From: Candidatus Firestoneibacteriota bacterium
GTDB lineage: Bacteria; Oederibacteriota; D2-FULL-39-29; CAIOVX01
Direction of reading: 5' to 3'
DNA: 64,000 nt
NCBI GenBank assembly: GCA_903861835.1
Contig: CAIOVX010000060.1
Location: forward strand, 100,504 to 164,503
The notes under the pieces were generated by a model. The model was not told where the DNA came from, did not search any database, and saw only the letters and a list, made by a program, of their open reading frames with translations. Shown in pieces: positions 1,279-61,736 of the stretch; position 1 is the first letter of the stretch, and each line of letters starts with the position of its first letter. Made by a program: the position numbers and the translations under genes.

Positions 1279-1298
1279 AAATTTAACCAATCGCCCTC

Positions 1299-1431
1299 CA
1301 GTTTAGATGCTTGGATGTTTGGATGATTAGACGCTGGCACAAAACATCTTCCTATCCTGAACCTATTGTGAGGCAGAGGTTTTGACCTTGCTTTTGAGCG
1401 TCCAACCTTCCAACCCTCTAAGCATCCAACT
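1299..1431. repeat. Family A interspersed intergenic element, full copy R1, about 133 bp
   Basis: About 80-85% identical to 10556..10694 by eye. The 5' end carries TTGGATG octamer repeats and the 3' end carries CATCCAAC repeats that are inverted to them. It sits between the asmA stop and the PAP2 RBS. Confidence 0.75.
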
Positions 1432-6546: not shown

Positions 6547-6785
6547 TGAGAGTACTCTTTTTCTTCATCGGCGGCGCTATAGCCGCCTTTCTTGTCTGCA
6601 AGTTCTTCGTCCTGAGCGGTTCTGAACTCGAAACTCTCGGGGCATTCTGGAACAACCTCGGCACCGAGAAACCGCAGAATGTCGAGACCCTGGTAAAATC
6701 AGGCGCATTTTTGAAACTCATTGTGGGGATGGCTCTCGGCGGGTTCCTCGGAGCGCTCTTCAGCAATGTTTTCGGAAACGATTAA
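6546..6785 (+). CDS. Small hypothetical membrane protein, 79 aa with 2 TM helices
   Basis: GAGGA SD 8 nt upstream. Its ATG overlaps the M48 stop. Hydrophobic segments present. Confidence 0.4.
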   Translation: MRVLFFFIGGAIAAFLVCKFFVLSGSELETLGAFWNNLGTEKPQNVETLVKSGAFLKLIVGMALGGFLGALFSNVFGND

Positions 6786-6801
6786 GGACCAAGGACGGCA
6801 A

Positions 6802-7911
6802 ATGTTAAAAACCATACGAGTTAAATTAAACACTTCTTCCAACCGTTCCTATTCAATAATAATAGGGCGCGGCATACTGGGAGCCGCGGGCAAAGCCCTA
6901 AAAAAACTCGGAGTTGGCAAGGATCTTTTCCTGATTACCGATTCCAATGTCAACCGGTTGTACGGAAGAGCGGTGCTTAGCAGTTTCAAGCGGGCCGGCT
7001 TTAAAGGCACCGGCAAGTCTGTCATCAAAGCAGGGGAACCGAGCAAATCCCTTGCCTCTTTCGCTAAAATTCAAAATGCTCTGTATGGGTTTGACAGGAG
7101 CGGTGACCGGCAGATAACAATAGCGACGCTCGGCGGCGGTGTTCCCGGAGACCTCGGCGGCTTTGTCGCCGGCACCTACAAGCGCGGTGTGAGCTTCATT
7201 CAGATACCTACCACCTTGCTTGGATTCGTGGACTGCGGGCTTGGCGGAAAGACCGCGGTAAACTTCAGGGAAGCAAAGAATTCCATAGGCATCTTTTGGC
7301 AGCCGAAAATGGTGTATATGGATTTAGAGGCTCTAAAGACCCTGCCGCTCCGTGAACTAAAATCGGGACTGGCTGAAACCTTAAAGTACGGCGTGATAAG
7401 CGACCCGCGGCTCTTTGATTACCTTGAGTTCAATTCCGACAGATTACTTGCTCTCGATATGGCGGTTTATGAAAAGATTATTCCGGCCTGCGTTAAAATA
7501 AAGGCGGATGTTACTTCTGCTGACGAGCGGGATGAGAAAGATATCCGCATAATGCTTAACTTCGGGCATACCGCCGGGCACGCGATAGAAGCGGCGACAA
7601 ATTACAAAAAATACACCCATGGCGAAGCAATAGCTCTCGGTATGCTCATCGCGGGGCAGATAGCAAAAGAACTCGGTCTATTTAAAGAAGCTGACCTCTT
7701 CCGCCTTGAAAATCTCACCGAAAACCTGGGCCTGCCGGTAAAACTCTCCGGCTGCAAAGTGAGTTCTGTACTAAATGCTATGAAGCATGACAAGAAGTTC
7801 AAATCAGGAGTGAACCGCTTCATACTCCCGGTCAAAATAGGCTCCTGCAAAGTCGTCAACAACATCCCTGAAAAAGTAATCGCAAAAGCAATCAAATCCA
7901 GAATGGCTTAG
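6802..7911 (+). CDS. aroB: 3-dehydroquinate synthase
   Basis: DHQS motifs GGGVPGDLGGFVA and HTAGHAIE. ATG 6802 follows an AAGGA SD. The ORF-track start at 6721 overlaps the previous gene. Confidence 0.85.
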   Translation: MLKTIRVKLNTSSNRSYSIIIGRGILGAAGKALKKLGVGKDLFLITDSNVNRLYGRAVLSSFKRAGFKGTGKSVIKAGEPSKSLASFAKIQNALYGFDRSGDRQITIATLGGGVPGDLGGFVAGTYKRGVSFIQIPTTLLGFVDCGLGGKTAVNFREAKNSIGIFWQPKMVYMDLEALKTLPLRELKSGLAETLKYGVISDPRLFDYLEFNSDRLLALDMAVYEKIIPACVKIKADVTSADERDEKDIRIMLNFGHTAGHAIEAATNYKKYTHGEAIALGMLIAGQIAKELGLFKEADLFRLENLTENLGLPVKLSGCKVSSVLNAMKHDKKFKSGVNRFILPVKIGSCKVVNNIPEKVIAKAIKSRMA

Positions 7912-7924
7912 TTAATCACCCCCG

Positions 7925-7954
7925 ACAATGAAAAAGGGCGGCTTTCGCCGCCCT
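7925..7954 (+). terminator. Rho-independent terminator after aroB
   Basis: Stem AGGGCGGC/GCCGCCCT, loop TTTC, then TCGTTTTCTT. Confidence 0.7.
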
Positions 7955-8031
7955 TCGTTTTCTTGCTATTTTGTCAGTCAACTGTCCTCTGCCTTCCGTC
8001 TTCCGAACTGCTGCGCCTTCGCACCTCTCAT

Positions 8032-8772
8032 TTAATACGCGTAAAGCCGCCCGTAAGGTCTATGCGAAAATGGATATAGTTTTATAAAATGCGCCTTCAA
8101 TATCTCTTCTGCTTTAAGTTTCGGAAAATATGAACAGTAATCCCTCACGTATTTCTCAAGCAAAACCCTGTCTTTTTCGTCCAGTTCGACCGCCTTTACT
8201 TCCTTGCCAAGCAGCCTCGGGTCTATAGTTTTCGTCCTGATAAAGATTGTGCCTCCGTGCATTCCGGTTCCTACGAAATCCCCCACAGGCAGCTTATCTG
8301 TGCCAAGGCCCAGGACTATCGCCAGCCCTCCGGCCATATATTCTCCGAAGAAATCCTTTACTTCCTCTCCTATTATTACGACCGGAAAGTTTTCTTCGAA
8401 GGCCTTCATATGTATGCCCACGCGGTAGCCCGCGTTTCCGCGGATATAGATCTTCCCGCCTCTCATCGAATAGCCGACGATATCGCCCGCGTTTCCGTGG
8501 ACGACAATGAGCCCGCTGTTCATAGTATTGCCGATGGCGTCCTGCGCGTTCCCGTGAACGATTATCTCGGGCCCGTTCATAAAAGCTGCCATATCGTTCC
8601 CCGGCACGCCGTTTATGACAAACTTGACCTTCTTGCTGACCGCGTCGCCGATGTACCTTTGCCCCATGGCGTTGTTTATAACAATCTCGTCAGCGTCCGC
8701 GAGAACCGCGTGAATCTTCTCATTTAAATCCCTATAATGCAGTTTGTCGGCGTCTATTGTTATCTTCTTCAT
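8032..8772 (-). CDS. Glutamate synthase C-terminal GXGXG beta-helix domain subunit, archaeal-type GltB3
   Basis: Repeated VHGNAGD, IRGNAG and VINGVPGND units. ATGA start/stop overlap with the upstream gene. Confidence 0.75.
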   Translation of the reverse strand: MKKITIDADKLHYRDLNEKIHAVLADADEIVINNAMGQRYIGDAVSKKVKFVINGVPGNDMAAFMNGPEIIVHGNAQDAIGNTMNSGLIVVHGNAGDIVGYSMRGGKIYIRGNAGYRVGIHMKAFEENFPVVIIGEEVKDFFGEYMAGGLAIVLGLGTDKLPVGDFVGTGMHGGTIFIRTKTIDPRLLGKEVKAVELDEKDRVLLEKYVRDYCSYFPKLKAEEILKAHFIKLYPFSHRPYGRLYAY

Positions 8773-10043
8773 ACTTCAGTACCCTCTCCGGTCACAAAGT
8801 GTTTCCTGAAATCCGTAGGAAGCAGCAGGAAACCGAAATCATCAGTCAGCAATTCTTTCTTCAGCGCCAATACATCCAGTTTTTCCTTTATCAAAAGGCC
8901 GTAGATGCCTGCGCGCTCTATACAGTTGACGAGTATCACGCCCACCAGCCTGTTATCCTTTACGACTATTTTCTTGTACTTTCCTTCACCGCTCTTTTTA
9001 ACAACCTCATAGCCGTCCTCTTTGGGGTTGGTTATCCCGAACGAGATTGAAGGCACTCCGAGTATTTCCACAGAGTTCATCGCGAAGCTTCCGCCAAACA
9101 CATCCTTCGCTCCGGACATATTATGCCCGGCCACTTTTCCCTGCTTAGCGGCGGTCGGCCAGATCGCGATAACCGCGCCCTTTCCGGAGAGGAATTCCAG
9201 CCCTTCGGCGCAGTCTCCCGCGGAAAAAACACCCGGCACATTCGTTTCCATCCTGGCGTCAACGACAATGCCTCGGTTTACCGCTATCGGCGTGCCTTTG
9301 GCGAGAGAAACCTCCGGGCGCACGCCCACAGCCATAATCAGCAGTTTCGCTTTCAGCTTCTTTCCGTTGCTTAGGACCAGCTCTTCTATTTTGCCGGCCT
9401 TTGAAACTACCTTCTTTATGGTGGTCTCTTTAAGAAACTCGCAGCCGTTCTCTTTCAATTTTTCTTCAATGATGGCTGAAGCTTCTCTGTCGAACGTATT
9501 GGCAAGCAGACGGTCGGCGATATCAAGAATCTTGAACTTCATCTTCTTGCCGAGCAGGGCTTCGGCGGCCTTCATACCGATAAGCCCGCCGCCGAGAATC
9601 ACGGCTTCTTTTACCTTGTTCTTCTCTATGTATTTTTCTATCTCTTTCGCATCGGCTAATTTTGTAAATGTGAACACTCCCGAAAGATTATCTTTCAGAC
9701 CGTCTACAGGAATCTTTATCGGTGTTCCGCCCGAGCAGATAAGCAGCCGGTCATAGGGCAGTTTCTTTTTGTTATTGATTTCGACATGGCGGCTTTTCGT
9801 CTCTATCTTCACCGCTTCGGTGTTATAAAGCACTTTCACGCCCATATCTTTCTCGAAATCCGTCGAGGTAAAACCGATCTTATCCTTGCTAAGCTTGCCC
9901 GCAAGGTAGTACGAGATCAGGGGGCGCGAGTAGAGCCGGTCCTCGTTGCTAATGACCGTAATCTCTCCTGTTTTGTCCGATTCCCTTATGGCGGTTATGG
10001 CGTTTACAGCAGCCACGGAATAACCCACTATCACATATTTCAT
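8769..10043 (-). CDS. FAD/NAD(P)-dependent oxidoreductase, NADH:ferredoxin (rubredoxin/putidaredoxin) reductase-like
   Basis: N-terminal VIVGYSVAAVNA dinucleotide fold, LYSRPLISYYL motif, a second GGGLIGMKAA fold, and no redox-active Cys42. GGGAGA SD present. Confidence 0.7.
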   Translation of the reverse strand: MKYVIVGYSVAAVNAITAIRESDKTGEITVISNEDRLYSRPLISYYLAGKLSKDKIGFTSTDFEKDMGVKVLYNTEAVKIETKSRHVEINNKKKLPYDRLLICSGGTPIKIPVDGLKDNLSGVFTFTKLADAKEIEKYIEKNKVKEAVILGGGLIGMKAAEALLGKKMKFKILDIADRLLANTFDREASAIIEEKLKENGCEFLKETTIKKVVSKAGKIEELVLSNGKKLKAKLLIMAVGVRPEVSLAKGTPIAVNRGIVVDARMETNVPGVFSAGDCAEGLEFLSGKGAVIAIWPTAAKQGKVAGHNMSGAKDVFGGSFAMNSVEILGVPSISFGITNPKEDGYEVVKKSGEGKYKKIVVKDNRLVGVILVNCIERAGIYGLLIKEKLDVLALKKELLTDDFGFLLLPTDFRKHFVTGEGTEV

Positions 10044-10065
10044 AAGCTTCTCCCGTTAACAGTTC

Positions 10066-10506
10066 TTACTTTTTCATTTTTATTGCTTCGTTGGGGCAGT
10101 GCTCCACGCAGGCCGGTGTTTCGCGGTCTCCGCAAAGGTCGCATTTTGAAGCCACTCTCTTATTCTTCAAGTCCGGCTTAATGACTCCAAAAGGACAAAC
10201 CATTATACACATCCAGCAGCCGACGCATTTATCCTTGTCGTGAAGGACCGTTGCTTCCTTGTCCTTGTACATAGCCGAGGTAAGACAGGCCTCGATGCAA
10301 GGCGCGTCGTGACAGTGCCTGCACTGCAGGGCGAAGGTGGTATAACCGCATTTTTCGAAAGCAATGCAGGAATCCGTAAGCGGCTTGAAACCTTCGGACT
10401 TGAAGGTCTTGATTATGTCCTTGGATTTCGAGTGCGCGGTAACGCAGTGCACTTCACAGAGCCTGCACCCTAGACAGTATTCTTCATTTATCACTATTCT
10501 TTTCAT
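10066..10506 (-). CDS. Polyferredoxin with several 4Fe-4S clusters
   Basis: Several CxxCxxCxxxCP motifs. Upstream is a GGGGGAAAGAGG SD. Confidence 0.8.
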   Translation of the reverse strand: MKRIVINEEYCLGCRLCEVHCVTAHSKSKDIIKTFKSEGFKPLTDSCIAFEKCGYTTFALQCRHCHDAPCIEACLTSAMYKDKEATVLHDKDKCVGCWMCIMVCPFGVIKPDLKNKRVASKCDLCGDRETPACVEHCPNEAIKMKK

Positions 10507-10555
10507 ATTCGCCTCTTTCCCCCTGGTTTTCAGTGCCTTCCCGCTAAAAACTCTC

Positions 10556-10694
10556 TTCTTTGATGCTTGGACGGTTGGATGTTTAGATGATTAGACGTTG
10601 GAATAAAACATCTTTCCATCCGGATCCTTTTGAGGTAGAGGTTTTGACCTTGCTTTTAAGCATCCAACCCTCTAACCTTCCAACCATCCAACAA
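10556..10694. repeat. Family A interspersed intergenic element, full copy R2
   Basis: Homologous to 1299..1431 in the same orientation. It starts 1-2 nt after the gltB2 stop and ends about 50 nt before the ferredoxin ATG. Confidence 0.75.
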
Positions 10695-12188
10695 CTACCA
10701 GGCTTCGCCTGCGTGCTTAATATCCAAAAGCCTGAGCTCAAGCTCGGTAAGGTCCACACCGCGAAGCTGCGCGCGGTTGCCGCGGAGAGATTCAAGCGCG
10801 TTTATACCCATTCCGCCGAGCATTTCTTTTATTTCAAGAGACCACGCCCGAAGAAGATTAAAAGCCCTCGTAGCGCCCACATCCGGATTCAACCTCTTCT
10901 TCAGGTTTGGATCCTGGGTCGCGATACCCCAGTTACATTTTCCCGTGTAGCATTTCTGGCAGAGATGACAGCCGAGGGAAATAAGCGCCGAGCTTCCAAT
11001 GTAGCACGCGTCAGCTCCCAGCGCTATCGCCTTAATAATGTCTCCGGAATTTCTGAAACCGCCGGCGGCGATGACTGAAGCCCTCTGGCGTATTCCTTCT
11101 TCCCGAAGCCTCGTGTCAACCGAAGCAAGCGCGAGCTCTATCGGAATACCTACATTATCCCTAATCACAGTCGGAGCGGCTCCGGTGCCGCCTCTGATAC
11201 CGTCTATCACAACAAAATCCGCTCCTGCCCTTACAAGACCTGAAGCTATAGGGGCAATATTATGAACGGCGGCAATTTTCACGCCCACCGGTTTTGAATA
11301 TCTGGTTGCTTCTTTAAGCGCAAAGATCAGCTGTTTCAAATCTTCGATTGAGTAAATATCATGGTGGGGCGCAGGTGAAATGGCGTCCGACCCGACAGGA
11401 ATCAATCTGGTTCTGGAAACTTCCTCATCAACTTTTTCTCCCGGAAGATGCCCGCCGATGCCGGGTTTCGCGCCCTGCCCGACCTTTATCTCAATGGCCG
11501 CCGCAGAATTCAGGTATTCGGTGTCTACTCCGAACCTGCCTGAAGCTACCTGAACGATCACATTCTTGGCGTAGGGTTTTAGGTCACGGTGCAAACCGCC
11601 CTCGCCGGTATTCCAGTAGGTGCCGTATTCCGTCGCCGCTTTCGCGAGCGATTTCTGGGCATTCAAGGATATCGACCCGTAGCTCATCGCGGAAAACATT
11701 ATCGGGGTTGTAAGTTTTAACTGGGTGGAAATCTTCTGCTTGGGTTCGAACTTATCGGGTTTGCTGCCTATGAAGGTTGTGAGTTCCATCGGCTCGCGGA
11801 GCGGGTCAATGGAAGGATTTGTGACCTGTGAAGCGTTAAGCAATATATGATCGAAATATTCTTTGTATTCCTTATCGCTTCCCATACCGGTAAGGAGTAT
11901 TCCGCCGGTTTCGGCCTGTTTTATAATGCCGTAAACATCCCCCGCCTTCCAGTGGGCATTCTCCTTTATCTCCGGAGCGCTCTGCACTATGGTAATAGCC
12001 GAGGTCGGGCAGATATCCTCGCAGAAATGGCAGCCGACGCAATTCCCGTCGCAGGAAGAGAGGGTATTGCTCTCCTCGTCATAAAGATGCGCGTCGTTGC
12101 TGCACATGCGGACACAGGCCTGGCACTTTATGCACTTATCCGGGTCCCTGTTTATTTTGAAATTTCCCCTGAATTTAGACTTTGCCAT
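10695..12188 (-). CDS. Glutamate synthase FMN-binding subunit with an N-terminal 2x[4Fe-4S] ferredoxin domain, archaeal-type GltB2
   Basis: CIKCQACVRMC...CVGCHFCEDICP, then the GOGAT FMN/TIM-barrel region including GGTGAAP. Confidence 0.85.
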   Translation of the reverse strand: MAKSKFRGNFKINRDPDKCIKCQACVRMCSNDAHLYDEESNTLSSCDGNCVGCHFCEDICPTSAITIVQSAPEIKENAHWKAGDVYGIIKQAETGGILLTGMGSDKEYKEYFDHILLNASQVTNPSIDPLREPMELTTFIGSKPDKFEPKQKISTQLKLTTPIMFSAMSYGSISLNAQKSLAKAATEYGTYWNTGEGGLHRDLKPYAKNVIVQVASGRFGVDTEYLNSAAAIEIKVGQGAKPGIGGHLPGEKVDEEVSRTRLIPVGSDAISPAPHHDIYSIEDLKQLIFALKEATRYSKPVGVKIAAVHNIAPIASGLVRAGADFVVIDGIRGGTGAAPTVIRDNVGIPIELALASVDTRLREEGIRQRASVIAAGGFRNSGDIIKAIALGADACYIGSSALISLGCHLCQKCYTGKCNWGIATQDPNLKKRLNPDVGATRAFNLLRAWSLEIKEMLGGMGINALESLRGNRAQLRGVDLTELELRLLDIKHAGEAW

Positions 12189-12215
12189 TTTAATCCTCTT
12201 TTCCGCAATTAGCGT

Positions 12216-12252
12216 CTTTTACTTTATAAACCTTATGAACTTTATAAACTTT
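12216..12252 (-). promoter_or_regulatory. Family C motif AAAGTTTATAAAGTTCATAAGGTTTATAAAGTAAAAG
   Basis: Overlaps the gltB1 stop codon and ends about 30 nt before the gltB2 ATG. Homologous copies lie at 36421..36454, 20155..20200 and 20307..20350. Confidence 0.4.
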
Positions 12253-13360
12253 TTGTTTTTGTAAACACCCCTATCACCGGCTTCCCCGCGTCAGGCATCC
12301 AGATGCGGTCAAGCACGGGGCTGACCGTGCGGATGGAGGCTTCTTCCGAAGCAATAAATAATTTCGACCCCTTCTCCCCGCAGACCAGAGGCCTAAGTTT
12401 GGTCCTGTCGTTTAAGCCAAGCATCATATTGCCGTCTGAAACTATTATCGCGAACGGCCCGTTCAAGAGCGCCGGCGCATAGATCATACGCATTCTGGTG
12501 TGCAGCTCCTTTTCTTCCGGGCTCATCCGGTCTATCTGAGACCAGAAGGGAGCAGCTATGGCCTTGCAGGCGTACTCATAGGAGAGCCTGTGCTTCCTGA
12601 CCAGCAAGTCAAAAAGATAAGCAATAACTTCCGTGTCGGTAAAGAGCGTGCAATAATATCCGAAGTTCTCAAGATACCTTCTGTTTATACCGTAGGAGGA
12701 AATCTCTCCGTTGTGCACCACGGTCCAGTTTAGCAGACCGAAGGGATGCGCCCCGCCCCACCACGCCACGGAGTTGGTAGGAAACCTGTTATGCGCAGTC
12801 CAGATATTGGCCTTGTAATCCGGTATCTTGAAAAATTCCGCTATTTCATCGGGGTTGCCGACGCCCTTAAACGCGCCCATATTCTTGCCGGAGGAGAAGA
12901 TAAAAGCTTCTTTTACCGTGCGGTTGAGCTCAAAAGCTTTTTCAGCGGTGTATTCGTCTTCAATTTCTTTCTTTGAGAAATCTTCAAGGAAGATGAGTTT
13001 CTCTTCTTTAGGCTTAAGGAAATACCTCTTCAGTATCGGAGGAGTTTTAAGGGTCTTTACAAACTTGGTCGGTATAGGTTCCGCGAGCCGGATATCAAAG
13101 TTCTTCTTCAGGAAAGCTTCCGATTCTTCAACAGCCGCTTCTCTGCCGAACATCATATGGAAACAATAGTAGTCCGCATGCTCGGGATAGATACCGTAAG
13201 CCGCGTAGCCGGAACCGAGACCGTTACCCCTCTCCATCATATTGCAGATAGAAGCAACGATATCCCCGCCGGAAAACACCGCGCCGCTTCTATCCATAAT
13301 ACCGGTTACGCCGCAGCCAGAAGGTATCTTATGAAGCCTGTCATCTAAAGGTCTTAACAT
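12242..13360 (-). CDS. Class II (Ntn) glutamine amidotransferase subunit, archaeal-type GltB1
   Basis: GATase-II features include an N-terminal propeptide before CGVTGI. ATG at 13360 with AGGAGA SD. The ORF track extends to TTG 13381. Confidence 0.8.
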   Translation of the reverse strand: MLRPLDDRLHKIPSGCGVTGIMDRSGAVFSGGDIVASICNMMERGNGLGSGYAAYGIYPEHADYYCFHMMFGREAAVEESEAFLKKNFDIRLAEPIPTKFVKTLKTPPILKRYFLKPKEEKLIFLEDFSKKEIEDEYTAEKAFELNRTVKEAFIFSSGKNMGAFKGVGNPDEIAEFFKIPDYKANIWTAHNRFPTNSVAWWGGAHPFGLLNWTVVHNGEISSYGINRRYLENFGYYCTLFTDTEVIAYLFDLLVRKHRLSYEYACKAIAAPFWSQIDRMSPEEKELHTRMRMIYAPALLNGPFAIIVSDGNMMLGLNDRTKLRPLVCGEKGSKLFIASEEASIRTVSPVLDRIWMPDAGKPVIGVFTKTKSL

Positions 13361-13386
13361 CTTGTTCTCCTGTCTTCCCAAAAAAA

Positions 13387-13419
13387 ATGTCCGCCGCGGC
13401 TTTTAACCGCGGCGGACAT
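13387..13419 (-). terminator. Perfect 13-bp GC-rich hairpin followed by U8, in the GOGAT leader
   Basis: ATGTCCGCCGCGG, loop TTAAAAG, CCGCGGCGGACAT, then TTTTTTTT on the minus strand. It lies between promoter 13448..13476 and the gltB1 SD. Confidence 0.55.
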
Positions 13420-13447
13420 CATTGTCTGCCACATCACTGTTTCAAAA

Positions 13448-13476
13448 TTATATATCAGCGCCAACCGCTTGTCAAG
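13448..13476 (-). promoter_or_regulatory. Perfect-consensus sigma70 promoter TTGACA-17-TATAAT on the minus strand
   Basis: TTGACA is the reverse complement of 13471..13476. TATAAT is the reverse complement of 13448..13453. Predicted TSS near 13441. Confidence 0.6.
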
Positions 13477-13579
13477 CGCTCTTTTCGGAAAAAAGGCCTG
13501 TTTCCGGCTCCCGAGAGGCTATTCCTCCGGAAAAATATGTTTTTATGCAAAAGAAAGGCGGCCGGAGAATACTCCCGGC

Positions 13580-15352
13580 TTACGGCCGCTTGACACCGTG
13601 CTCCGCAAGCTTCTCTGCCGCAGGTCCAAAGGTTTTCTCAAACTCCAGCGCCTTTAAATAAGATGCAACCGCCTCATCCTTTCGGCCGAGCTTGTCCAGT
13701 ATTAAACCCATATTGTAGCGCGCATCAGCGTAATAAGAATTCAACGCTATCTCTTTTTCAAATTCAAGCCTGGCCTCTTCATATTCTCCGCGGGTATAGT
13801 AAATATTACCTTTATAAAAATGGGTGCGCAGATCCCTCGTGTAATCAAGACCGTCGCTAAGCCGCAAAGACCTGTCAAAATACGCGAGCGCCTCAGGGTA
13901 CCTGCTCCGGTCATACAAGAGTATGCCGTAACCGGTTTCCAGGTTAGAGACAAAATATAGCGCCGCGACGGCAACCGTCAGCAGAAGAACGAAAACGGAG
14001 CCGGTAAGAAATACTATCCCGTAAAACCTGTTCTTTATTCCGGAAACAACGCCCTGCCCTGATAACAACACTCCGCAGTAAACGCAGAAGGTTCCGAAAA
14101 GCGGGGCCAACTTCATGGGAAAATTAAAGAAAGCATGTACGGCGTAACCCGCGACGGCGGCGAGCAGGCCAAAATACAATATTCTTTCCGTGCCGCTTTT
14201 TTCTTTTGCCGCGGAGAACCCGAACGCCAGGGAAAAACCTATTATCAGGAGGAAGATAAATACGCCGAAGATCCCGAGCTCAGCCCAGATTTGTATATAA
14301 TCGTTGTGCGCGTCCTTCGTCATCTGGTAGGGATAATCCGTGTAACCGGGAGAGTTGAGCACGCGCCCTTCATATTTGGAAACGTATACTTTATAGGAAG
14401 CCGCGCCGAAACCGGTGAGCGGTCTTTCCTTTATCATCTCAAGCCCGGCCTTCCACATAACGAGGCGCCCGCGCTCCGAGAGTGTTTTGAAACTCCCGGC
14501 GCTCTTTAGCTTGGAAAAAGCTTCTTGCGGGTGCATCACGGCAACCGCCGAGATACCAAGCAAGGAAAGTACCAGCAGGGAAAGGATGAGTTTCTTTCTC
14601 TTTTCCCGAGCATAAGACAAGGTAAGGACGATAAAGAACAGAAATCCCAGCGCCGCCGAGGCCCAGGCATTAGCGGTCTCCGTCTTGACAAGGCAGAGCA
14701 GACCCAGCAGGGTAGCGCTTCCGTAGTAGACGGCCTTTTTGAGCCCGTCAGACCCTATGAAAAGCGCAAAGGCTACCGGCACAGAGAGGACAAGATAACC
14801 TCCGAAGAAATTTGCGTTTCCCATCGTCGAAGAAATTCTGTCTTTAAACTTTAGGAACTCGAGCGAACGTTCCGTAAAGAGGAGGTTCATAGTCAGTTCA
14901 AAGAAATCTATGTGAAAAACCTGCAAGAGGCCGAGCAAAGAAGCGACAATAGTGGCGGCGCAAACAGCGTTCCCGAAACCCGCAAGGTTCTTCTTATCCG
15001 AGGCTGCGCAATGAGCCGCGCCCAGAACAAGCACTCCGTAAAGCATAATATCCAAAGCGTATTTAAGCGAAACTAGTTTGTTGGCAGAATAAATACAGGA
15101 GAGCAGGGAAAGCAGAAAGAACGCTGAAAAAAGCGCGGCCACGGGGACCGACAGCCTAACCTTCTTTAAAACTCCGCGCTTTGCAAGCAGAGCCCCGAGC
15201 AGAGCGCAAGCTGCATATACAAACAGGTTCTTGGGCGCGCTAAAAGCGTCTTTGGCTGCGGGAAAATAGAGCAGAGGCGCAAGGAACAGTATCAGTATGA
15301 TTATCGCTGCCATCAGGCAATTATGGCATTTGGAAAAGCTTATTTTCAACAT
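13580..15352 (-). CDS. O-antigen ligase (Wzy_C) family membrane protein with a C-terminal TPR domain
   Basis: DAHNDYIQIWAELGIFG O-antigen ligase motif, many TM helices, and TPR repeats at the C-terminus. Confidence 0.8.
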   Translation of the reverse strand: MLKISFSKCHNCLMAAIIILILFLAPLLYFPAAKDAFSAPKNLFVYAACALLGALLAKRGVLKKVRLSVPVAALFSAFFLLSLLSCIYSANKLVSLKYALDIMLYGVLVLGAAHCAASDKKNLAGFGNAVCAATIVASLLGLLQVFHIDFFELTMNLLFTERSLEFLKFKDRISSTMGNANFFGGYLVLSVPVAFALFIGSDGLKKAVYYGSATLLGLLCLVKTETANAWASAALGFLFFIVLTLSYAREKRKKLILSLLVLSLLGISAVAVMHPQEAFSKLKSAGSFKTLSERGRLVMWKAGLEMIKERPLTGFGAASYKVYVSKYEGRVLNSPGYTDYPYQMTKDAHNDYIQIWAELGIFGVFIFLLIIGFSLAFGFSAAKEKSGTERILYFGLLAAVAGYAVHAFFNFPMKLAPLFGTFCVYCGVLLSGQGVVSGIKNRFYGIVFLTGSVFVLLLTVAVAALYFVSNLETGYGILLYDRSRYPEALAYFDRSLRLSDGLDYTRDLRTHFYKGNIYYTRGEYEEARLEFEKEIALNSYYADARYNMGLILDKLGRKDEAVASYLKALEFEKTFGPAAEKLAEHGVKRP

Positions 15353-42019: not shown

Positions 42020-43300
42020 CTATTTGTTAAGAACAGCGTAAAAATCCTGCCCTATCTTGTCCGAAAATACCTTCAACTCGGTCAGGGACAGCTCTTTAAA
42101 ACCGATCTCTTCTTTAACACAATGCAGCACAATCTTGCCGATGACATTATGCGCGGCCTTGAAACTTAAGCCTTTCTTGACAAGGTAGTTCGCGGCCTCG
42201 ACGGCATCCGAGAAATCATTCTGCATGGCGTAGGTGATATTTTCTTTATTGAATTTTACACCTGCCATCACGAGCGCGGTAATGTCCAGAGCTTCTTTTA
42301 CGGAATCCGCCGCGCTGAAGAGGTGTATCTTGTCCTCCTGCATATCGCTGTTATAGGCGAGCGGCAAGCCTTTCAGTATAGTCAGTATCCCTGCAAGATT
42401 CCCGTAAACCCGGCCGGTCTTCCCGCGGAGAAGTTCGAAGATATCAGGGTTTTTCTTCTGCGGCATAATGCTGGACCCTGTTGAGTATTCATCGGGTATC
42501 TCTACGTACTTAAATTCCTTGGTTGACCAGATAACCATCTCTTCCGCCAGCCGGCTCAGATGCATGAACACAATCGCCGAAGCAGCAATGAACTCCACCA
42601 CATGGTCGCGGTCAGAGACAGCGTCTATGGTGTTCTTTACAACAGAAGGAAAACCGAGTTGTTTCGCGACAAAAACACGGTCTATCGGAAGCGAGGTTCC
42701 GGCAAGGGCGCAAGCCCCGAGCGGCATAATATTCACGCGCTTAAAGCAATCTTTGAAGCGCTCCGCGTCCCGCGAAAGCATCGCAATATAGGCGCCTGTC
42801 CAAGCGGAGAGGCTCACCGGCTGGGCGTGCTGCATATGGGTAAAACCTGGCAGCGCCAGACCCTTATTTTCTTTCGCGATTTTAGCAAAAACAGAAATGA
42901 GCTCTTCTATCTCTGCCGTTATGCTGTTAATCTCGGCGCGCAGGTACATCCGCTCGTCAAGCGCGATCTGGTCGTTACGGCTCCGGGCAGTGTGCATCTT
43001 CTTACCCGCTTCGCCCGCCAACTTTATTACGCGCTTCTCAATGTCCGTATGAATGTCCTCGCAGGAAACATCAGAAACGAATTTCCCAGACTTTACGGAA
43101 GCCAGCACCTTCCACAAGGCTTTAATTATCTTCGAGGCATCAGCCTTAGGAATTATTTTTTGTTTACCGAGCATTTTGACATGGGCAATACTGCCGAGCA
43201 CATCATACTCGGCAAGCCGGTAATCAAAGAAGATGGAGCTTGTAAACTTCTCCGCCGCCTTCGACGGCTCTTTCTCAAAACGCCCGCCCCAGAGTTTCAT
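42020..43300 (-). CDS. argH: Argininosuccinate lyase
   Basis: MKLWGGRF N-terminus and the fumarate-lyase signature GSSIMPQKKNPD. Confidence 0.9.
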   Translation of the reverse strand: MKLWGGRFEKEPSKAAEKFTSSIFFDYRLAEYDVLGSIAHVKMLGKQKIIPKADASKIIKALWKVLASVKSGKFVSDVSCEDIHTDIEKRVIKLAGEAGKKMHTARSRNDQIALDERMYLRAEINSITAEIEELISVFAKIAKENKGLALPGFTHMQHAQPVSLSAWTGAYIAMLSRDAERFKDCFKRVNIMPLGACALAGTSLPIDRVFVAKQLGFPSVVKNTIDAVSDRDHVVEFIAASAIVFMHLSRLAEEMVIWSTKEFKYVEIPDEYSTGSSIMPQKKNPDIFELLRGKTGRVYGNLAGILTILKGLPLAYNSDMQEDKIHLFSAADSVKEALDITALVMAGVKFNKENITYAMQNDFSDAVEAANYLVKKGLSFKAAHNVIGKIVLHCVKEEIGFKELSLTELKVFSDKIGQDFYAVLNK

Positions 43301-43391
43301 TTGCGCTCCTCATTCTTAACGTGGTCATGCTGATTTTAAAATAAAATTACGCGGATTTTGATTGTTTCGTCCGCACAACTAAAGAGCAGTG

Positions 43392-44603
43392 CTATTTTCT
43401 TCCCTTATCCAGCATTGCTTTTATTTTAATCGGGAGGCCAAAGAGGTTAATGAAGCCCTCGGCATCCTTGTGGTCGTAATGCGAATCCTTCTTAAAATTC
43501 GCCACATTCCGGTCATAAAGAGAGTAGGGCGACTTTCTCCCCACCGCCATGCAGGAGCCTTTGTAAAGTTTCATTCTTACGGTTCCGGTCACCGTACGCT
43601 GGGTGAAATTGACAAACTCATCAAGCGCCTGACGAATATCCGTGTACCACTGGCCGTTGTAGACCAGCTCGGCATATTTTGGCGCGATTGTTTCTTTGTA
43701 ATGATACGCGTCGCGCTCCATCGTTAACAGTTCAAGGTCTTTATGCGCTGCCATAAGCACGGTTCCTGCCGGAGTTTCATAAACGCCGCGCGACTTCATC
43801 CCGACCAGGCGGTTCTCAACGATGTCAACACGTCCGACGCCGTTTCGCCCCGCGATTATGTTGAGCTTTTCTATAAGCTGCACCGACCCGTAACTTTTGC
43901 CGTTTATTTTCACCGGCTTTCCCTTCAGAAAATCAATTTCCACATACTCTGGCTTGTTTGGCGCCTTTTCAGGGCTCTTTGTCAGCAGATACATCTCTTC
44001 CGGAAGAGTGAACCACGGATCTTCCAATATCCCGCCCTCATAACTTATGTGCCAGAGGTTCCGGTCCATGCTATAAGGCTTTTTCTTGGTTACCGGAACG
44101 GGTATCCCTCTCGCAGCCGCATAATCCATGGCATCTTCGCGGGAAGCTATGTCCCACTCGCGCCAGGGGGCGATAATCTTGACTTCCGGCATAAGCGCTT
44201 TGAAGGTTAGCTCAAACCGCACCTGATCATTGCCCTTGCCGGTGGCTCCGTGGCAAACCGCATCGGCTTTCTCTTTCTTGGCTATATCCACTATCTTTTT
44301 CGCGATTACCGGACGCGCGAAGGAGGTGCCGAGTAAATAGCGCCCTTCATATACGGCGCCGGCCTTGAGCACCGGGAAAATGAAATCCTCCACAAACTCT
44401 TTTTTTGCGTCAATAATATAAATCTTGCTTGCCCCGGTCCTTATGGCTTTTTTGCGGAGAGGCGCAAGTTCCTCGCCTTGCCCGACATCAACCGCGCACG
44501 CAATCACTTCGCAGCCGTAATTCTCTTTCAGCCAGGGTATTATTATTGAAGTATCGAGTCCTCCTGAATAAGCAAGGACAACTTTCTTCGCCTTAAATTG
44601 CAT
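43392..44603 (-). CDS. argG: Argininosuccinate synthase
   Basis: [11 protein letters not shown]-loop motif. Confidence 0.9.
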
Positions 44604-45525
44604 CTTTTCCTCCCAGAAGGAAATAGAGTACCGCTTTCTGCACGTGCATGCGGTTCTCTGCCTGCTCGAAAACCACCGAGTTCTTGCTTTCCATAACCTC
44701 GTCCGTTATCTCATCGCCGCGGTGCGCAGGCAGGCAATGCATTATCAGATAATCTTTCTTTCCGGAGGCGGCAAGCAACTCTGTGTTGAGCTGGTAAGCT
44801 TTCAAATCTTTCTTCCTTTTTGCGGCCTCTGCTTCGGCTCCCATGCTGACCCAGACATCGGTATAGATAACATCCGCGTTCCGCACTGCCTCTTTCGGAT
44901 CCGAAGTAACTTCCAGCTGCGTGTTCGCGTTTAATTTTTTCGCGGTCTCAATAACTTCTTTCTTGGGCCGGTACCCTTCCGGCGAGGCTACGCTTAGGGG
45001 AATGCCCATCAGCGCGCAGATAAAGACCAGCGAGTTGGTCACATTATTGTCTCCGTCGCCGACATACGCGACCTTTATCCCGGAAAAGCCTTTTTTCTCG
45101 TAAATAGTATAAAGGTCCGCGAGCGCCTGGCAAGGGTGCTCGAAATCTGAGAGCGCATTTATCACGGGAACCGACGCGTTTGACGCCAGCTCAACAACCT
45201 TCCGGTGTTCAAAAGTCCGGATAGTTATAGCGTCAACATAACCGGAAAGTACCCTCGCGGTATCAGCGATGGTCTCTCCCCTGGAAAGCTGTATCTCCGT
45301 GGAATTCAAGACCACCGGCATACCGCCAAGCTGATAAATGGCGCATTCAAAAGAGACCCTGGTGCGGGTGGAAGGCTTCTCAAATATCATGGCAAGCGTC
45401 TTGCCTGAAAGCGGCTTGTCAGTCCGTTTCTTCTCTTTGAAGTCCGCAGTCACACGGAAGATCGCTTCAACCTCTTCCTTTGTGAGCCCGGCTATTCCCA
45501 ATAGATCCTTAGATTTAAGTTTCAT
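44593..45525 (-). CDS. argF: Ornithine carbamoyltransferase
   Basis: [16 protein letters not shown] and [10 protein letters not shown] motifs. The classical ornithine-binding SMG motif is present. Confidence 0.9.
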
Positions 45526-45674
45526 TAACTTCTCCCAAAAAAGATAAATTGCCTGTCAGGCTTTGCGCCGTAAGGCATAATGAGTTATTATTTTACCACA
45601 AAAGGCGGGATTATTTCATTCTTAATAGGCGGCAAAGAGCCGTTTTTCAAGCAAAAGAGGGGTTCTTAGCTCTA

Positions 45675-46862
45675 TTATTCTGAAAGTGTTTCGTCAAGAG
45701 CGCGAATCATAGAATCAATATGCTTCTTTGCTACTATGAAAGGCGGGAGGAAACGGAGGACCTTATCGTTCGTGCAGTTTATCAGGAAACCTTTGCGGAG
45801 CATTTTACTCACTGCCTCTTTGCCCGGCATTTCAAGTTCTATCCCGCAAATAAGACCGAGACCGCGGGCTTCCTTTATAATAGGATGTTTTTCCTTTAGC
45901 TTCTTCAATTCGGATAGCAGATAAGAACCCATCTCCGAAACGTTTTTTAAAAGATTCTTCCTCTCAATGGTTTCAAGTACCGCAAGCCCGGCTTCGCAGA
46001 CAATAGGGCCTCCGCCGAATGTGCTCCCGTGACTGCCGGGGACAAAAGCCGCTGCAACTTTCTCAGAGGCAGCCATAACACCCAGAGGAAGTCCTGCGCC
46101 TATAGTCTTTGCCAGCGTCAGTATGTCGGGAAGAATGTTTTCCTGCTGAAAGGCGAACATCTTCCCTGTTCTTCCCATGCCGACCTGCACTTCGTCGAGA
46201 ATAAGCAGCAGCTTTTTCTCATCGCAAAGAGCCCGCAGCTCTTTCAGATACCCGGCCGCGGGAACCAGCACGCCGCCTTCGCCCTGCACCGGCTCCACCA
46301 TAACAGCGCAGGTTTTTTCGTCTATCGCGTCCCTTACGGCTTTTATCTCGTTGTAATTAACATATTTAAAACCCGCAGGCAGGGGTTCATAGCCCTTATG
46401 AAATTTTTCGTGCGGGGTTGCCGTAAGCGTCGCCAGAGTTCTACCGTGAAAAGCGCCGCGCATGGTAATTATCTCAAACTTTTCAGGACCGAGGTTCTCC
46501 TTGGCATATTTTCTTGCAAGTTTAATAGCCGCTTCGTTCGCTTCTGCGCCGCTGTTGCAGAAAAAACTCTTGTTCAGTCCGGATAACTGCGCGAGTTTTT
46601 TTGCGAGCTTCACCTGTGGGATGGTGTAATACAGGTTTGAAGTGTGGGAGAGCTTTTTCGCCTGATTCTTGATAGCGTTCACCACGGCAGGATGGCAGTG
46701 CCCAAGAGCATTAACCGCGATACCTGAAAGGAAATCAAGGTACTGCTTCCCTTCATTATCCGTTACATACATCCCCTTGCCTTTTGTAATAAGGACCGGA
46801 AACCTGGCATAGGTCTGGAAGATGTATTTCTGCTCATCAAGGAAAATGTCTGTGTTTCTCAT
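45675..46862 (-). CDS. argD: Acetylornithine aminotransferase
   Basis: Class III aminotransferase. ATG 46862 with AGGAGA SD. The ORF track starts at 46883. Confidence 0.85.
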   Translation of the reverse strand: MRNTDIFLDEQKYIFQTYARFPVLITKGKGMYVTDNEGKQYLDFLSGIAVNALGHCHPAVVNAIKNQAKKLSHTSNLYYTIPQVKLAKKLAQLSGLNKSFFCNSGAEANEAAIKLARKYAKENLGPEKFEIITMRGAFHGRTLATLTATPHEKFHKGYEPLPAGFKYVNYNEIKAVRDAIDEKTCAVMVEPVQGEGGVLVPAAGYLKELRALCDEKKLLLILDEVQVGMGRTGKMFAFQQENILPDILTLAKTIGAGLPLGVMAASEKVAAAFVPGSHGSTFGGGPIVCEAGLAVLETIERKNLLKNVSEMGSYLLSELKKLKEKHPIIKEARGLGLICGIELEMPGKEAVSKMLRKGFLINCTNDKVLRFLPPFIVAKKHIDSMIRALDETLSE

Positions 46863-46882
46863 GGAGGTCTCCTGGCAGAACA

Positions 46883-46985
46883 AAGCACTAAATACTAAAT
46901 TCTAAATACTAAACAAGGCAAAGTGAAAAACGCCGGCAACAGCAAGAAAGATTGTTTTGTCGCTTTTGTTTAGAATTTAGTGCTT
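46883..46985. repeat. Family B heptamer array (CACTAAA-TACTAAA-TTCTAAA-TACTAAA) forming the 5' arm of an about 100 bp hairpin with 46967..46985
   Basis: TTGTTTAGAATTTAGTGCTT is the reverse complement of the heptamer arm. Located 20-120 nt upstream of the argD ATG. Confidence 0.45.
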
Positions 46986-55659: not shown

Positions 55660-56295
55660 TTACCTTCTGTAGAACTCGACGATGAGCTGATCGTTTATTA
55701 CGGCGCCGATTTCGTCTTTTTCCGGCATCTTCTTGAAAGTCGCAGTAAGCAGTTCATGATTTACTTCAAGCCAGCCGCCCTGCGGAAGCATACCGCGTTC
55801 CTTGATTCTCACAACCGCAGCCTTGACTCCGACAAGTTCTTTTGACTTGTCCTTGAGCGAGACCACGTCATTGGGCTTCATTATGTAGGAAGGAATATTT
55901 ACGCGTTTCCCGTTCACCAGTATATGCCCGTGAAGCACCAGCTGTCTTGCCTGGTCCCTGGAACCGCCGAAACCTGCGCGGTAAACGATATTGTCAAGAC
56001 GGCTCTCAAGCAACTTGAGCAGGTAAAGTCCCGTTACGCCGGGTTTGCTCGCAGCGATTGAGAAAAACCGTTTGAACTGGGCTTCATTTAAGCCATAGAT
56101 TCTTTTCGCTTTCTGTTTTTCGCGAAGCCTTATCCCATATTCGGAAGGCTTCCTGGTCATCTTGCCGTGCTGTCCCGGGGCGTAATCGCGTTTTTCGAGA
56201 GCGCACTTCGGGGTGAAACATCTGTCGCCTTTCAGGAAAAGTTTTGTCTTTTCTCTGCGGCACAACCTGCATTTAGAACCGGTATTCCTTGACAA
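55660..56295 (-). CDS. rpsD: 30S ribosomal protein S4
   Basis: Family-level similarity to S4. Zinc-ribbon-like [18 protein letters not shown] at the N-terminus. Confidence 0.9.
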
Positions 56296-56378
56296 TTGTA
56301 TTTCCTCCTGTTTTTCTCTTTCAGTTTACAGCCGTAGCCTTAATCCTGAAAGTTATCAGCCGATTATGACGGCCGGTT

Positions 56379-56855
56379 TTAGACTCTTCTCTTCTTTCTG
56401 GGCCTGCAGCCGTTGTGCGGTATCGGGGTAACGTCTTTGATTACCGCTATCTTTAACCCGATGGTTTGAACTGCCCTGATGGCGGATTCCCTTCCCGCTC
56501 CGGGACCTTTTACGTGGACTTCCGCGTGAGTTATTCCCTTATCCATGGCTTTCCTGGTTGCCTGTTCGGCTGCTATCTGCGCCGCGAACGGGGTTCCCTT
56601 CTTTGAACCTTTGAATCCAAGACCGCAGGAACCCGCGCTGCTCCAGGCAACTACGGCTCCCGACATGTCGGTTATGGATACAATCGTATTGTTGAAAGTC
56701 GAATGTATATGAACCACGCCTCTCTTCATCGGCCGGTTTCTGACTTCCCTTACCGGAGCCACAGGCACTGCGGCAGGCGCTGCTGCCGTGGGCGCCGCTG
56801 GTGCAGCTGCCGCCGGCTTTACGTCTTTAGGTGTTTCCTTTTTTATCTCGCTCAT
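56379..56855 (-). CDS. rpsK: 30S ribosomal protein S11 with an Ala/Pro-rich N-terminal extension
   Basis: S11 core follows about 30 residues of [22 protein letters not shown]. Confidence 0.85.
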
Positions 56856-56868
56856 TTAATATTTCTCC

Positions 56869-57264
56869 TTAGTCCTTCTTTTCCATTGTAGCTTTAACTT
56901 CTTTTCTCATTACGCCGACCGTCTTTCTCTTTCCTTTCCTGGTCCTGGCGTTGGTTTTTGTCCTCTGGCCGCGCACCGGCAGGTTCCTCTTGTGACGGAG
57001 CCCTCTATATGATCCGATGTCGATGAGACGCTTAATGTTCATGGAAATCTCTCTGCGGAGATCGCCTTCGACGCGGTATTCCTGGAGCGCTTCCCTTATC
57101 TTCTTAATGTCCTGCTCAGTTAGCGCGGAAACCCTGAGTGACGGGTCAACGCCTATCTCTTTCAGTATTTTTTTGCCCAGGGACCAACCAATACCGTAAA
57201 TATACGGAAGGGCCGCGTCTATCCTTTTGTTCTTGGGCAGATCAACACCCGCAATTCTAGCCAT
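56869..57264 (-). CDS. rpsM: 30S ribosomal protein S13
   Basis: Family-level similarity to S13, with [10 protein letters not shown] at the N-terminus. Confidence 0.9.
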
Positions 57265-57336
57265 ACTTGTTCTCCTTGAATTTATTCCTTCACATTAGCA
57301 GCTCGGCACGCAGAGCGTTCCGGCGCCGCTTGCCGC

Positions 57337-57450
57337 TTATCCCTGGCGCTGTTTGTGTTTCGGGTTGGTGCATATTACCCGAATCACACCCTTGCGCTTT
57401 ATTACCTTACATTTGTCGCATATTTTTTTTACCGAAGCTCTTACTTTCAT
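57337..57450 (-). CDS. rpmJ: 50S ribosomal protein L36
   Basis: Hand-translated [37 protein letters not shown]. Absent from the ORF track because it is under 60 aa. Confidence 0.8.
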
Positions 57451-57452
57451 AA

Positions 57453-57671
57453 TCACCCTATCCTATAAGTTATCCTGCCCCGCGTAAGATCATACGGTGA
57501 CAGTTCTAGTTTTATCTTGTCGCCCGGGAGCAGTCTGATGTAATGCATTCTCATTTTCCCGGAAATATGGGCAAGCACCTTATGCCCGTTATCAAGTTCA
57601 ACCCTAAACATCGCGTTGGGGAGAGACTCAAGTATCTTGCCCTCTACTTCAATGCTTCCTTCCCTTGCCAT
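57453..57671 (-). CDS. infA: Translation initiation factor IF-1
   Basis: 72 aa S1-like OB fold, IF-1 family. Confidence 0.9.
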
Positions 57672-57685
57672 TTTTTACCTTTACC

Positions 57686-58432: not shown

Positions 58433-59091
58433 TAAACCAGTTTTTTGTCTTTCAGAAGCTTTTTAAGAGAATCTATTATCTCGGCGATGCCTTTTTCCGC
58501 TGCTACATCGCTAAGCAGCCCTTTCTGCTGATAGAACTCTATCAGCGGCTGCGTGTCTCTCATATATACGGTCAGACGGTTCTTAATGGTCGCTTCATTG
58601 TCATCCGCGCGCTGGTAAAGCTCTCCGCCGCACTTATCGCAAATCTTCTCGCCCTTCGCCGAAGGCTGTGAGAATATGTTAAAGATTGCGCCGCAGGACT
58701 TGCATACCCGCCTGCTGGTAAGCCTCTTCAAAACAAGAGCGTCGGAAACCTGAAGATTTACGACCAAATCTATATTTAAAGAAAGCTCTTTCATTGTTTT
58801 ATCGAGCTCTACTGCCTGATTTAAAGTCCTGGGGTAGCCGTCCAGCATGAAACCTTTTTTGCAGTCTGCCTGCTTGACCCTGTTTTTCAGTATGTTATTG
58901 ATGATATCATCGGAAACCAGACCGCCGCTTTTCATAATCGACTCGGCCTTTTTACCTATCTCAGTTCCTTCTTTAACTTCCTTGCGGAGCATATCCCCGG
59001 TGGATATCTTTGGCAGATTGAACTCCTTTGTCATCACGTCGCCTGTCGTGCCTTTGCCTGCACCCGGAGCGCCGAGAATTATCAGTATCAT
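58432..59091 (-). CDS. adk: Adenylate kinase with a zinc lid
   Basis: GAPGAGKGT P-loop, plus CKSC...CDKC in the lid. Confidence 0.9.
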   Translation of the reverse strand: MILIILGAPGAGKGTTGDVMTKEFNLPKISTGDMLRKEVKEGTEIGKKAESIMKSGGLVSDDIINNILKNRVKQADCKKGFMLDGYPRTLNQAVELDKTMKELSLNIDLVVNLQVSDALVLKRLTSRRVCKSCGAIFNIFSQPSAKGEKICDKCGGELYQRADDNEATIKNRLTVYMRDTQPLIEFYQQKGLLSDVAAEKGIAEIIDSLKKLLKDKKLV

Positions 59092-60844: not shown

Positions 60845-60853
60845 TTGTATCTC

Positions 60854-61734: not shown

Positions 61735-61736
61735 TA

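Follow-up and report, generated by a model that had tools for sequence, protein, structure and literature searches.

We describe a five-gene operon in a 64-kb stretch of a Candidatus Firestoneibacteriota genome (contig CAIOVX010000060.1; "the window" below means this whole stretch) and confirm that it is a genuine operon for a split glutamate synthase (GOGAT) in which a ferredoxin and a flavoprotein take the place of GltD. When ammonium is scarce, GOGAT provides the main route of ammonia assimilation. The five proteins would form a single enzyme that carries electrons from reduced nicotinamide adenine dinucleotide (NADH) to flavin adenine dinucleotide (FAD), then through four iron–sulfur clusters, two more and a four-cysteine cluster to flavin mononucleotide (FMN) and on to 2-iminoglutarate, a reading drawn from sequence comparison to which we give a probability of roughly 0.6. 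The gene cluster is already known, widespread and genetically studied, and the operon in the window is another well-preserved example of it. It runs from 13360 to 8032 on the minus strand and contains the five co-directional minus-strand open reading frames (ORFs) of the region:

12242..13360, minus strand: gltB1, class-II (N-terminal nucleophile, Ntn) glutamine amidotransferase, 372 amino acids (aa) from its ATG
10695..12188, minus strand: gltB2, N-terminal 2x[4Fe-4S] ferredoxin domain, remnant of the central domain and FMN/synthase domain
10066..10506, minus strand: ferredoxin gene, four-cluster protein of the CooF/HydN/AorA type, 146 aa
8769..10043, minus strand: flavoprotein gene, FAD/NAD(H) protein of the AorC/PadH/FNOR type, 424 aa
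8032..8772, minus strand: gltB3, GXGXG beta-helix subunit

Gaps of 53 nt (gltB1–gltB2), 188 nt (gltB2–ferredoxin) and 22 nt (ferredoxin–flavoprotein) separate the first four genes, and the flavoprotein gene is translationally coupled to gltB3, its stop codon and the gltB3 start forming an ATGA overlap that can be read directly at 8772..8769. Escherichia coli GltB maps piecewise on gltB1, gltB2 and gltB3; because this one protein is spread over the first, second and fifth genes, the three represent a split large subunit. Pfam searches matched GATase_2, Glu_synthase, Fer4_11, Pyr_redox_2 and GXGXG, and no NCBIfam model reached its cut-off for any of the five proteins. These comparisons bear out the initial annotation of this DNA, which had named all five genes, the ATGA coupling of the last two and 13360 as the end of the operon. 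The ATG at 13360 is the better start for gltB1 because it has an AGGAG ribosome-binding site ahead of it, because gene prediction made independently on a metagenome scaffold of identical sequence also gives a protein of 372 aa and because the other candidate, a TTG at 13381, sits in the U-tract of the leader terminator; we rejected the TTG.

The association of the five genes extends far beyond this genome. We searched GTDB, with one genome per species, using an alignment of flavoprotein homologues, which yielded 79 loci (numbered with the prefix L), and located homologues of the five proteins in them by tblastn. All five genes occur together in 49 of the 79 loci, 42 of them in the order seen in the window, and 10 further loci hold part of the cluster, cut by a contig end, for a total of 59 loci of the GOGAT type. 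Another 17 loci have the ferredoxin and flavoprotein genes with no GltB genes, and three have the flavoprotein gene alone. The ferredoxin gene adjoins the flavoprotein gene in 76/79 loci, and the pair is placed between gltB2 and gltB3 in 47 of the 49 complete loci. Recurrence of the five genes together in 49 loci is an association far beyond chance, and it answers the call of the initial annotation for a check of neighborhood conservation. The cluster spans more than 10 phyla: its hosts include Firestonebacteria, Planctomycetota (including Brocadiaceae), Actinomycetota, Chloroflexota (Anaerolineae and Dehalococcoidia), Geobacter, Desulfovibrio, Armatimonadota, Fuchsiella, Syntrophomonas, Ruminococcus albus and many other Clostridia, Endomicrobium, Aquificota and Sphaerochaeta, and one archaeal metagenome-assembled genome carries a contig-cut copy.

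The surroundings of these loci tie the cluster to nitrogen assimilation, since glutamine synthetase (GlnA), PII and AmtB are neighbors only at loci of the GOGAT type. Within 8 kb, GlnA was found at 28 of the 59 such loci, PII at 13 and AmtB at 14, and none of the three was found near the other 20 loci (0/20). No glnA, PII or amtB gene was found in the 64-kb window. At loci without GltB genes, the adjoining gene encodes a Ni-carbon monoxide dehydrogenase (Ni-CODH) in all four loci whose adjacent gene was scanned, and two further scanned neighbors are acetyl-CoA synthases. The initial annotation had held that its case would weaken if the flavoprotein and ferredoxin clustered with other partners in relatives; the only such partners belong to this CooS-adjacent clade, whose members are paralogues and not orthologues.

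A tblastn search of the 64-kb window with E. coli GltD gave no homologue at E <= 0.01, and none that is genuine was found within 8 kb of the 59 related clusters, in agreement with the original description of an operon without a canonical GltD. The sole GltD match near the clusters (L079, 2.4e-6) falls on the flavoprotein gene itself.

The three GltB proteins retain the catalytic and structural parts of the large subunit. GltB1 matches GATase_2 (E = 3e-13) and aligns with E. coli GltB residues 131-382. Its nucleophile cysteine, in the motif SGC(G/A), is kept in 98% of 48 homologues and is preceded by a predicted propeptide of 15 aa, a leader that varies from 10 to 25 aa among homologues; a short propeptide likewise precedes the nucleophile cysteine in E. 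coli GltB and in Bacillus subtilis PurF. A second cysteine, C244 in the numbering from the TTG start, is conserved in 100% of the 48 homologues and is not the Ntn nucleophile. GltB3 matches GXGXG (PF01493, E = 1.2e-33), aligns with E. coli GltB residues 1266-1447 and also scores against the FwdC models of NCBIfam.

GltB2 matches Glu_synthase (PF01645) over positions 2-369 of the 369 in the profile (E = 1.1e-136), together with Glu_syn_central (1.8e-16) and Fer4_7 (9e-9), and it aligns with E. coli GltB residues 477-558 and 861-1173, the second segment being its FMN domain, at 39% identity. Its N-terminal domain contains eight cysteines in two CxxCxxCxxxC motifs. The FMN domain has a four-cysteine motif, C407-x2-C410-x2-C413-x4-C418, of which C407, C413 and C418 align with E. 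coli GltB C1102-x5-C1108-x4-C1113 and C410 is additional. Judged by its spacing, the E. coli triplet corresponds to the three-cysteine [3Fe-4S] site of the canonical enzyme. All 12 cysteines of GltB2 are conserved in 100% of 55 homologues, and the four-cysteine motif is found in 57 of the 57 homologues that cover its region. With four cysteine ligands available, the cluster at this site is probably [4Fe-4S] rather than the canonical [3Fe-4S].

The ferredoxin matches Fer4_11 (E = 4e-15). Of its 18 cysteines, 16 make up four cluster-binding motifs, with conservation of 98-100% across 59 homologues. Its best NCBIfam models are the N-terminus of AegA and HydN, and PadI also matches, all below their cut-offs; its PDB matches are HycB4 (3e-23), HycB3 and AorA (8c0z_C, 3e-11). 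Counted over the five proteins, the predicted cofactors of the enzyme are one FAD, one FMN and seven iron–sulfur clusters.

The flavoprotein matches Pyr_redox_2 (E = 3e-54), with additional matches to Pyr_redox and Rubredoxin_C, and has a two-Rossmann FAD/NAD fold with a C-terminal domain. Its best NCBIfam model is PadH (NF045765), the NADH-binding subunit of phenylglyoxylate:NAD+ oxidoreductase according to that model; at 286.3 bits against a cut-off of 475 we rejected it as a PadH equivalog and regard it as a homologue only. The closest sequence in the PDB is AorC (8c0z_E, 3e-45), which is also the top Foldseek match (TM score 0.86) of an AlphaFold2 model with a pLDDT of 90, followed closely by putidaredoxin reductase and BphA4, both NADH-dependent ferredoxin reductases. 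The protein had initially been placed in the putidaredoxin/rubredoxin-reductase type by its motif LYSRPLISYYL and its lack of a redox-active cysteine. The motif is there, and none of the four cysteines is conserved (9-56% across 57 homologues); the class assignment is a fair one, although the nearest relatives are AorC, PadH and FNOR.

In a neighbor-joining tree, the flavoproteins linked to GOGAT form one clade, separate from its sister clade of CODH-linked proteins. At the end of strand beta-2 of the NAD domain, 59 of 60 GOGAT-linked flavoproteins have Asp or Glu (Asp174 in the window), and flavoproteins outside this clade, including the CODH-linked paralogues, mostly have V-(K/R)-S. From established knowledge of this fold, we infer that an acidic residue at this site marks a preference for NADH; the equivalent site in BphA4, the E175 region, has been targeted by coenzyme-switch mutants, whose structures are among the Foldseek matches. 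The signature thus predicts NADH for the GOGAT module and NADPH for the CODH module. Loci without GltB genes whose flavoproteins have V-(K/R)-S are L016, L022, L023, L028, L033, L035, L069, L071 and L077.

Two further flavoproteins, from Desulfovibrio caledoniensis (L057) and a member of the Desulfovibrionaceae (L079), have V-R-S-R in place of the acidic signature. The second was too short for inclusion in the tree. The first lies within the GOGAT clade, and its gene stands alone, without adjoining GltB or ferredoxin genes, which suggests that some Desulfovibrio carry the parts of the cluster at separate chromosomal sites. An ORF of 1187 aa in L057 was discarded as an out-of-frame artefact of a GC-rich genome. 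In Desulfovibrio vulgaris, DVU3290-3292 are presumably ferredoxin and flavoprotein genes, an assignment that we do not use as evidence. Both DVU1823-1821 and DVU3290-3292 belong to the nitrogen regulon of that species (PMC4641369).

A solved structure offers a precedent for the electron path that we propose. Among solved structures, the closest relative of the flavoprotein is AorC from the tungsten enzyme AorABC, an aldehyde oxidoreductase of Aromatoleum aromaticum (PDB 8C0Z) whose AorA subunit is homologous to the ferredoxin; the four-cluster AorA links the catalytic subunit to the FAD of AorC, where NAD+ is reduced and from which cluster FS4 of AorA is 9.5 A away (PMC10413684). The systems differ in the catalytic partner, a tungsten enzyme, and in direction, as electrons in AorABC normally flow toward NAD+. 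AorA, at 192 aa, also has N- and C-terminal extensions, the C-terminal helix being credited with filament formation (PMC10413684), whereas the 146-aa ferredoxin of the window aligns with AorA residues 39-165 and ends right after its last cluster motif. The same type of ferredoxin and flavoprotein pair occurs in phenylglyoxylate:NAD+ oxidoreductase (PadEFGHI) and in CooS-CooF-FNOR CODH clusters, where electrons from CooF were proposed to reach NAD(P)+ by way of FNOR (PMC4703632). The CODH-linked flavoproteins are paralogues that form a separate clade and are mostly of the NADPH type, V-(K/R)-S.

On these comparisons, the operon would encode a five-subunit glutamate synthase for ammonia assimilation. 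Removal of the GltB1 propeptide would expose the nucleophile cysteine, glutamine would be hydrolyzed, and the ammonia would pass to the FMN/synthase site of GltB2 and add to 2-oxoglutarate, with GltB3 acting as a structural beta-helix domain; reduced FMN would then convert 2-iminoglutarate to glutamate. The flavoprotein and ferredoxin would serve as a dedicated input module in place of GltD. NADH would reduce the FAD of the flavoprotein, and single electrons would travel through the four [4Fe-4S] clusters of the small ferredoxin to the two at the N-terminus of GltB2, then to the four-cysteine cluster of the FMN domain, probably [4Fe-4S], and finally to FMN. The sequences show the gene content, the domain identities, the conserved cofactor ligands, the synteny and the flavoprotein clades; from them we infer the assembly of the five proteins, the order of the carriers and NADH as donor. 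The route from NADH through flavoprotein and ferredoxin to GltB2, which the initial annotation had already suggested, is favored by the synteny across phyla, the GOGAT-linked flavoprotein clade, its Asp/Glu signature and the AorABC precedent.

The enzyme of the window shares its four catalytic and structural domains with the canonical NADPH-GOGAT GltB/GltD of E. coli and Azospirillum, and its chemistry is predicted to be the same. The overall route from pyridine nucleotide to FAD, iron–sulfur clusters and FMN is also alike (PMC8097209). The domains are spread over three genes, however, the central domain is reduced, the cluster site of the FMN domain has a fourth cysteine, and GltB2 gains the N-terminal 2x[4Fe-4S] domain. 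Canonical GltD is an adrenodoxin-reductase-like protein with 2x[4Fe-4S], whereas the window has an unrelated Pyr_redox_2 flavoprotein and a separate four-cluster ferredoxin, with NADH instead of NADPH as the predicted donor. By analogy, the logic of the canonical GOGAT would thus have been copied with unrelated parts. That a split core can take exchangeable input modules was known beforehand from the F420-dependent glutamate synthases of methanogens and ANME archaea, which also have a split or rearranged core; their input is an FrhB-type F420H2 dehydrogenase, unlike the ferredoxin and FAD/NADH flavoprotein of the window (PMC9012536).

The best-studied relative is the five-gene cluster of Clostridium thermocellum, Clo1313_2032-2036, which is called gogat and has been deleted (PMC9888227). 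Clo1313_2036 is annotated as a class-II amidotransferase, Clo1313_2035 as a 'ferredoxin-dependent glutamate synthase' and Clo1313_2034 as a 4Fe-4S ferredoxin (PMC4676874). The gene order, GltB1-GltB2-ferredoxin-flavoprotein-GltB3, is that of the window, as in Ruminococcus albus and other Clostridia. The host belongs to another phylum and its cluster adjoins glnA and an ANTAR regulator gene, neither of which was found in the window (for ANTAR, among the ORFs scanned). Under ammonium limitation, deletion raised NADPH-dependent glutamate dehydrogenase activity 160-fold (PMC9888227), as expected from the loss of GOGAT. The initial annotation knew of no characterization of the gene combination, which holds for its biochemistry; the cluster itself was known from C. 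thermocellum.

Several points weigh against an NADH-fed enzyme. The chain of seven clusters exceeds what plain transfer from NADH to FMN needs. In C. thermocellum, NADH- and NADPH-dependent GOGAT activities were unmeasurable and ferredoxin was presumed to be the cofactor (PMC9888227; PMC5887222), and deletion of the cluster under ammonium limitation roughly doubled the H2 yield, from 2.44 to 4.26 mol per mol cellobiose, which the authors take as a sign of a ferredoxin-linked enzyme (PMC9888227). The equivalence of Clo1313_2033 and Clo1313_2032 to the flavoprotein and GXGXG genes comes from gene order only, the prediction of coenzyme preference uses one signature position, and the search for gltD covers the window, so that a gltD elsewhere in this genome is possible. 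Our literature search on split or archaeal-type glutamate synthases, including Thermotoga locus tags, found no biochemical characterization; a 2021 review mentions ORFs for individual glutamate synthase domains in Archaea (PMC8097209).

The C. thermocellum physiology speaks for a ferredoxin-dependent GOGAT, a possible but unlikely alternative in which soluble reduced ferredoxin, for example from pyruvate:ferredoxin oxidoreductase, would donate at the N-terminal dicluster of GltB2 or at the four-cluster subunit, leaving the flavoprotein as a side valve to NAD(H) or an accessory or protective NADH oxidase. Besides the H2 yield and the undetectable NAD(P)H-dependent activity (PMC9888227), this alternative has in its favor the annotation of the split enzyme as ferredoxin-dependent (PMC4676874) and the ferredoxin-like domain that GltB2 itself carries. 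Negative results in crude extract are weak evidence for an oxygen-labile enzyme of seven clusters, however, and the genomic record speaks against a flavoprotein of secondary role: it lies with the ferredoxin inside the operon in 59/79 genomes, between gltB2 and gltB3 in 47/49 complete loci, is translationally coupled to gltB3 in the window and belongs to a GOGAT-specific clade with a conserved NADH signature.

An NADH-type signature could be reconciled with ferredoxin-linked physiology if the enzyme had two donors, with NADH entering at the FAD and ferredoxin at the N-terminus of GltB2 or the four-cluster subunit, possibly in a confurcating manner. We regard such an enzyme as improbable; were it real, ammonia assimilation could draw on, or balance, both the NADH and ferredoxin pools. 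Strict confurcation or bifurcation we hold to be decidedly improbable. Here the FAD subunit and the long row of clusters would couple NADH with reduced ferredoxin, or the oxidation of NADH would be coupled to the reduction of both 2-iminoglutarate and ferredoxin; nitrogen assimilation would then be linked with the redox balance between ferredoxin and NAD. The idea is favored by the unusual length of the chain, with seven predicted clusters, and by the mismatch between a physiology that suggests ferredoxin and a sequence that suggests NADH. With NADH as donor, the GOGAT reaction is already strongly exergonic, which makes coupling unneeded. The authors of PMC4703632 speculated on bifurcation at the FAD of the homologous FNOR, but the homologous AorABC reduces NAD+ without bifurcating (PMC10413684), and the proteins of the window are not similar to Etf, BfuABC, HdrA or NfnSL, the four families known to bifurcate (listed in PMC12318220).

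N-methylglutamate synthase (MgsABC) is likewise made of three GltB1/2/3-like domain types, and GltB3 scores against FwdC models. Another amidotransferase or amine-transfer enzyme of that kind is nevertheless highly improbable here, as GltB2 retains the GOGAT iron–sulfur site and adds redox modules needless for methyl transfer, glutamine synthetase, PII and AmtB are frequent neighbors, no gmaS- or mgd-type genes are adjacent and the neighbors are unrelated to methylamine use, and deletion of the C. thermocellum cluster gives a nitrogen-assimilation phenotype (PMC9888227).

Around and within the operon, we found the following non-coding features:

13447..13475, minus strand: sigma-70-type promoter, TTGACA-17 nt-TATAAT, 12/12 consensus positions
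13386..13440, minus strand: 5' leader with a terminator and a competing hexaloop hairpin, a candidate ANTAR-type attenuator
10555..10694, minus strand: palindromic dispersed repeat of ~130 nt, inside the 188-nt gltB2–ferredoxin gap
7933..7956, minus strand: intrinsic terminator closing the operon, 10-bp stem with 7 G-C pairs, both strands

Expression would start at the sigma-70 promoter and probably be gated at the leader terminator by protein-dependent antitermination. The intrinsic terminator of the leader (13420..13386; 16-bp stem, 10 G-C pairs, U8 tail) lies ~27 nt downstream of the promoter and directly before the gltB1 ribosome-binding site. Its 5' arm can pair alternatively as GGCAGAC-AAUGAU-GUCCGCC, a hairpin whose hexaloop has A1 and G4, and ahead of it is a weak hexaloop, AGUGAU, on a stem of only 2 bp. 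In a 90%-identical relative (L001), the promoter hexamers and the leader are conserved nearly base for base and the remaining spacer has diverged. In many Clostridia loci, too, the cluster is preceded by hexaloop hairpins (A1, G4) overlapping a terminator, so an ANTAR-type antitermination leader upstream of gltB1 is plausible. The gogat cluster of C. thermocellum has an ANTAR regulator gene beside it (PMC4676874), and the Clostridia hairpins fit the ANTAR (NitR-like) control discussed for that species; the window ORFs scanned included no ANTAR gene. One Clostridia form, (A)UGAGC-AAAGGC-GUUCAU, lies ~60-120 nt upstream of gltB1, with its 3' half forming the 5' arm of a long terminator, at loci that include L027, L029, L039, L040, L043, L046, L053-L056, L061 and L066. 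A further hexaloop hairpin, CGUGA-AGCGAU-UCACG, gives the R. albus locus (L055) clear dual hexaloops. At the other end of the operon, the closing terminator serves both directions and is common to the convergent aroB (6721..7911). The only Rfam hits in 7900..13700 at E <= 1 were two sRNA matches below threshold, both downstream of the operon.

We rejected an operon-specific RNA regulator in the 188 nt that separate gltB2 from the ferredoxin gene, because this spacer is filled by a dispersed repeat that has a second copy at 1291..1431, ~85% identical, and is absent from the L002 locus. The two copies share an exact 21-nt core, AAAAGCAAGGTCAAAACCTCT, and the arms are built of GGTTGGAN octamers (9 matches versus 0.47 expected), whose copy number differs in L001. 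The repeat has a predicted fold of -56 kcal/mol (z = -2.9), and the copy at 10555..10694 has no Rfam match. It is a lineage-specific insertion, similar to repetitive extragenic palindromic (REP) elements or miniature inverted-repeat transposable elements (MITEs), and no part of the enzyme. The wider context in the window is housekeeping, with arginine-biosynthesis genes for argininosuccinate lyase, argininosuccinate synthase and a class-III aminotransferase at 42020..46883 and a ribosomal-protein/secY/adk cluster at 55660..63569.

Overall, the five-gene form appears to be the standard GOGAT across a very wide range of anaerobes, including rumen and gut Clostridia, Geobacter, Desulfovibrio, anammox Planctomycetota, Chloroflexota and candidate phyla. 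Metabolic models, such as those of C. thermocellum, assume ferredoxin as its donor, whereas the comparative evidence predicts NADH, delivered by an AorC/AorA-like module. A second prediction is a [4Fe-4S] cluster at the FMN-domain site instead of the textbook [3Fe-4S]. If both hold, the redox bookkeeping of engineered and environmental anaerobes would change.

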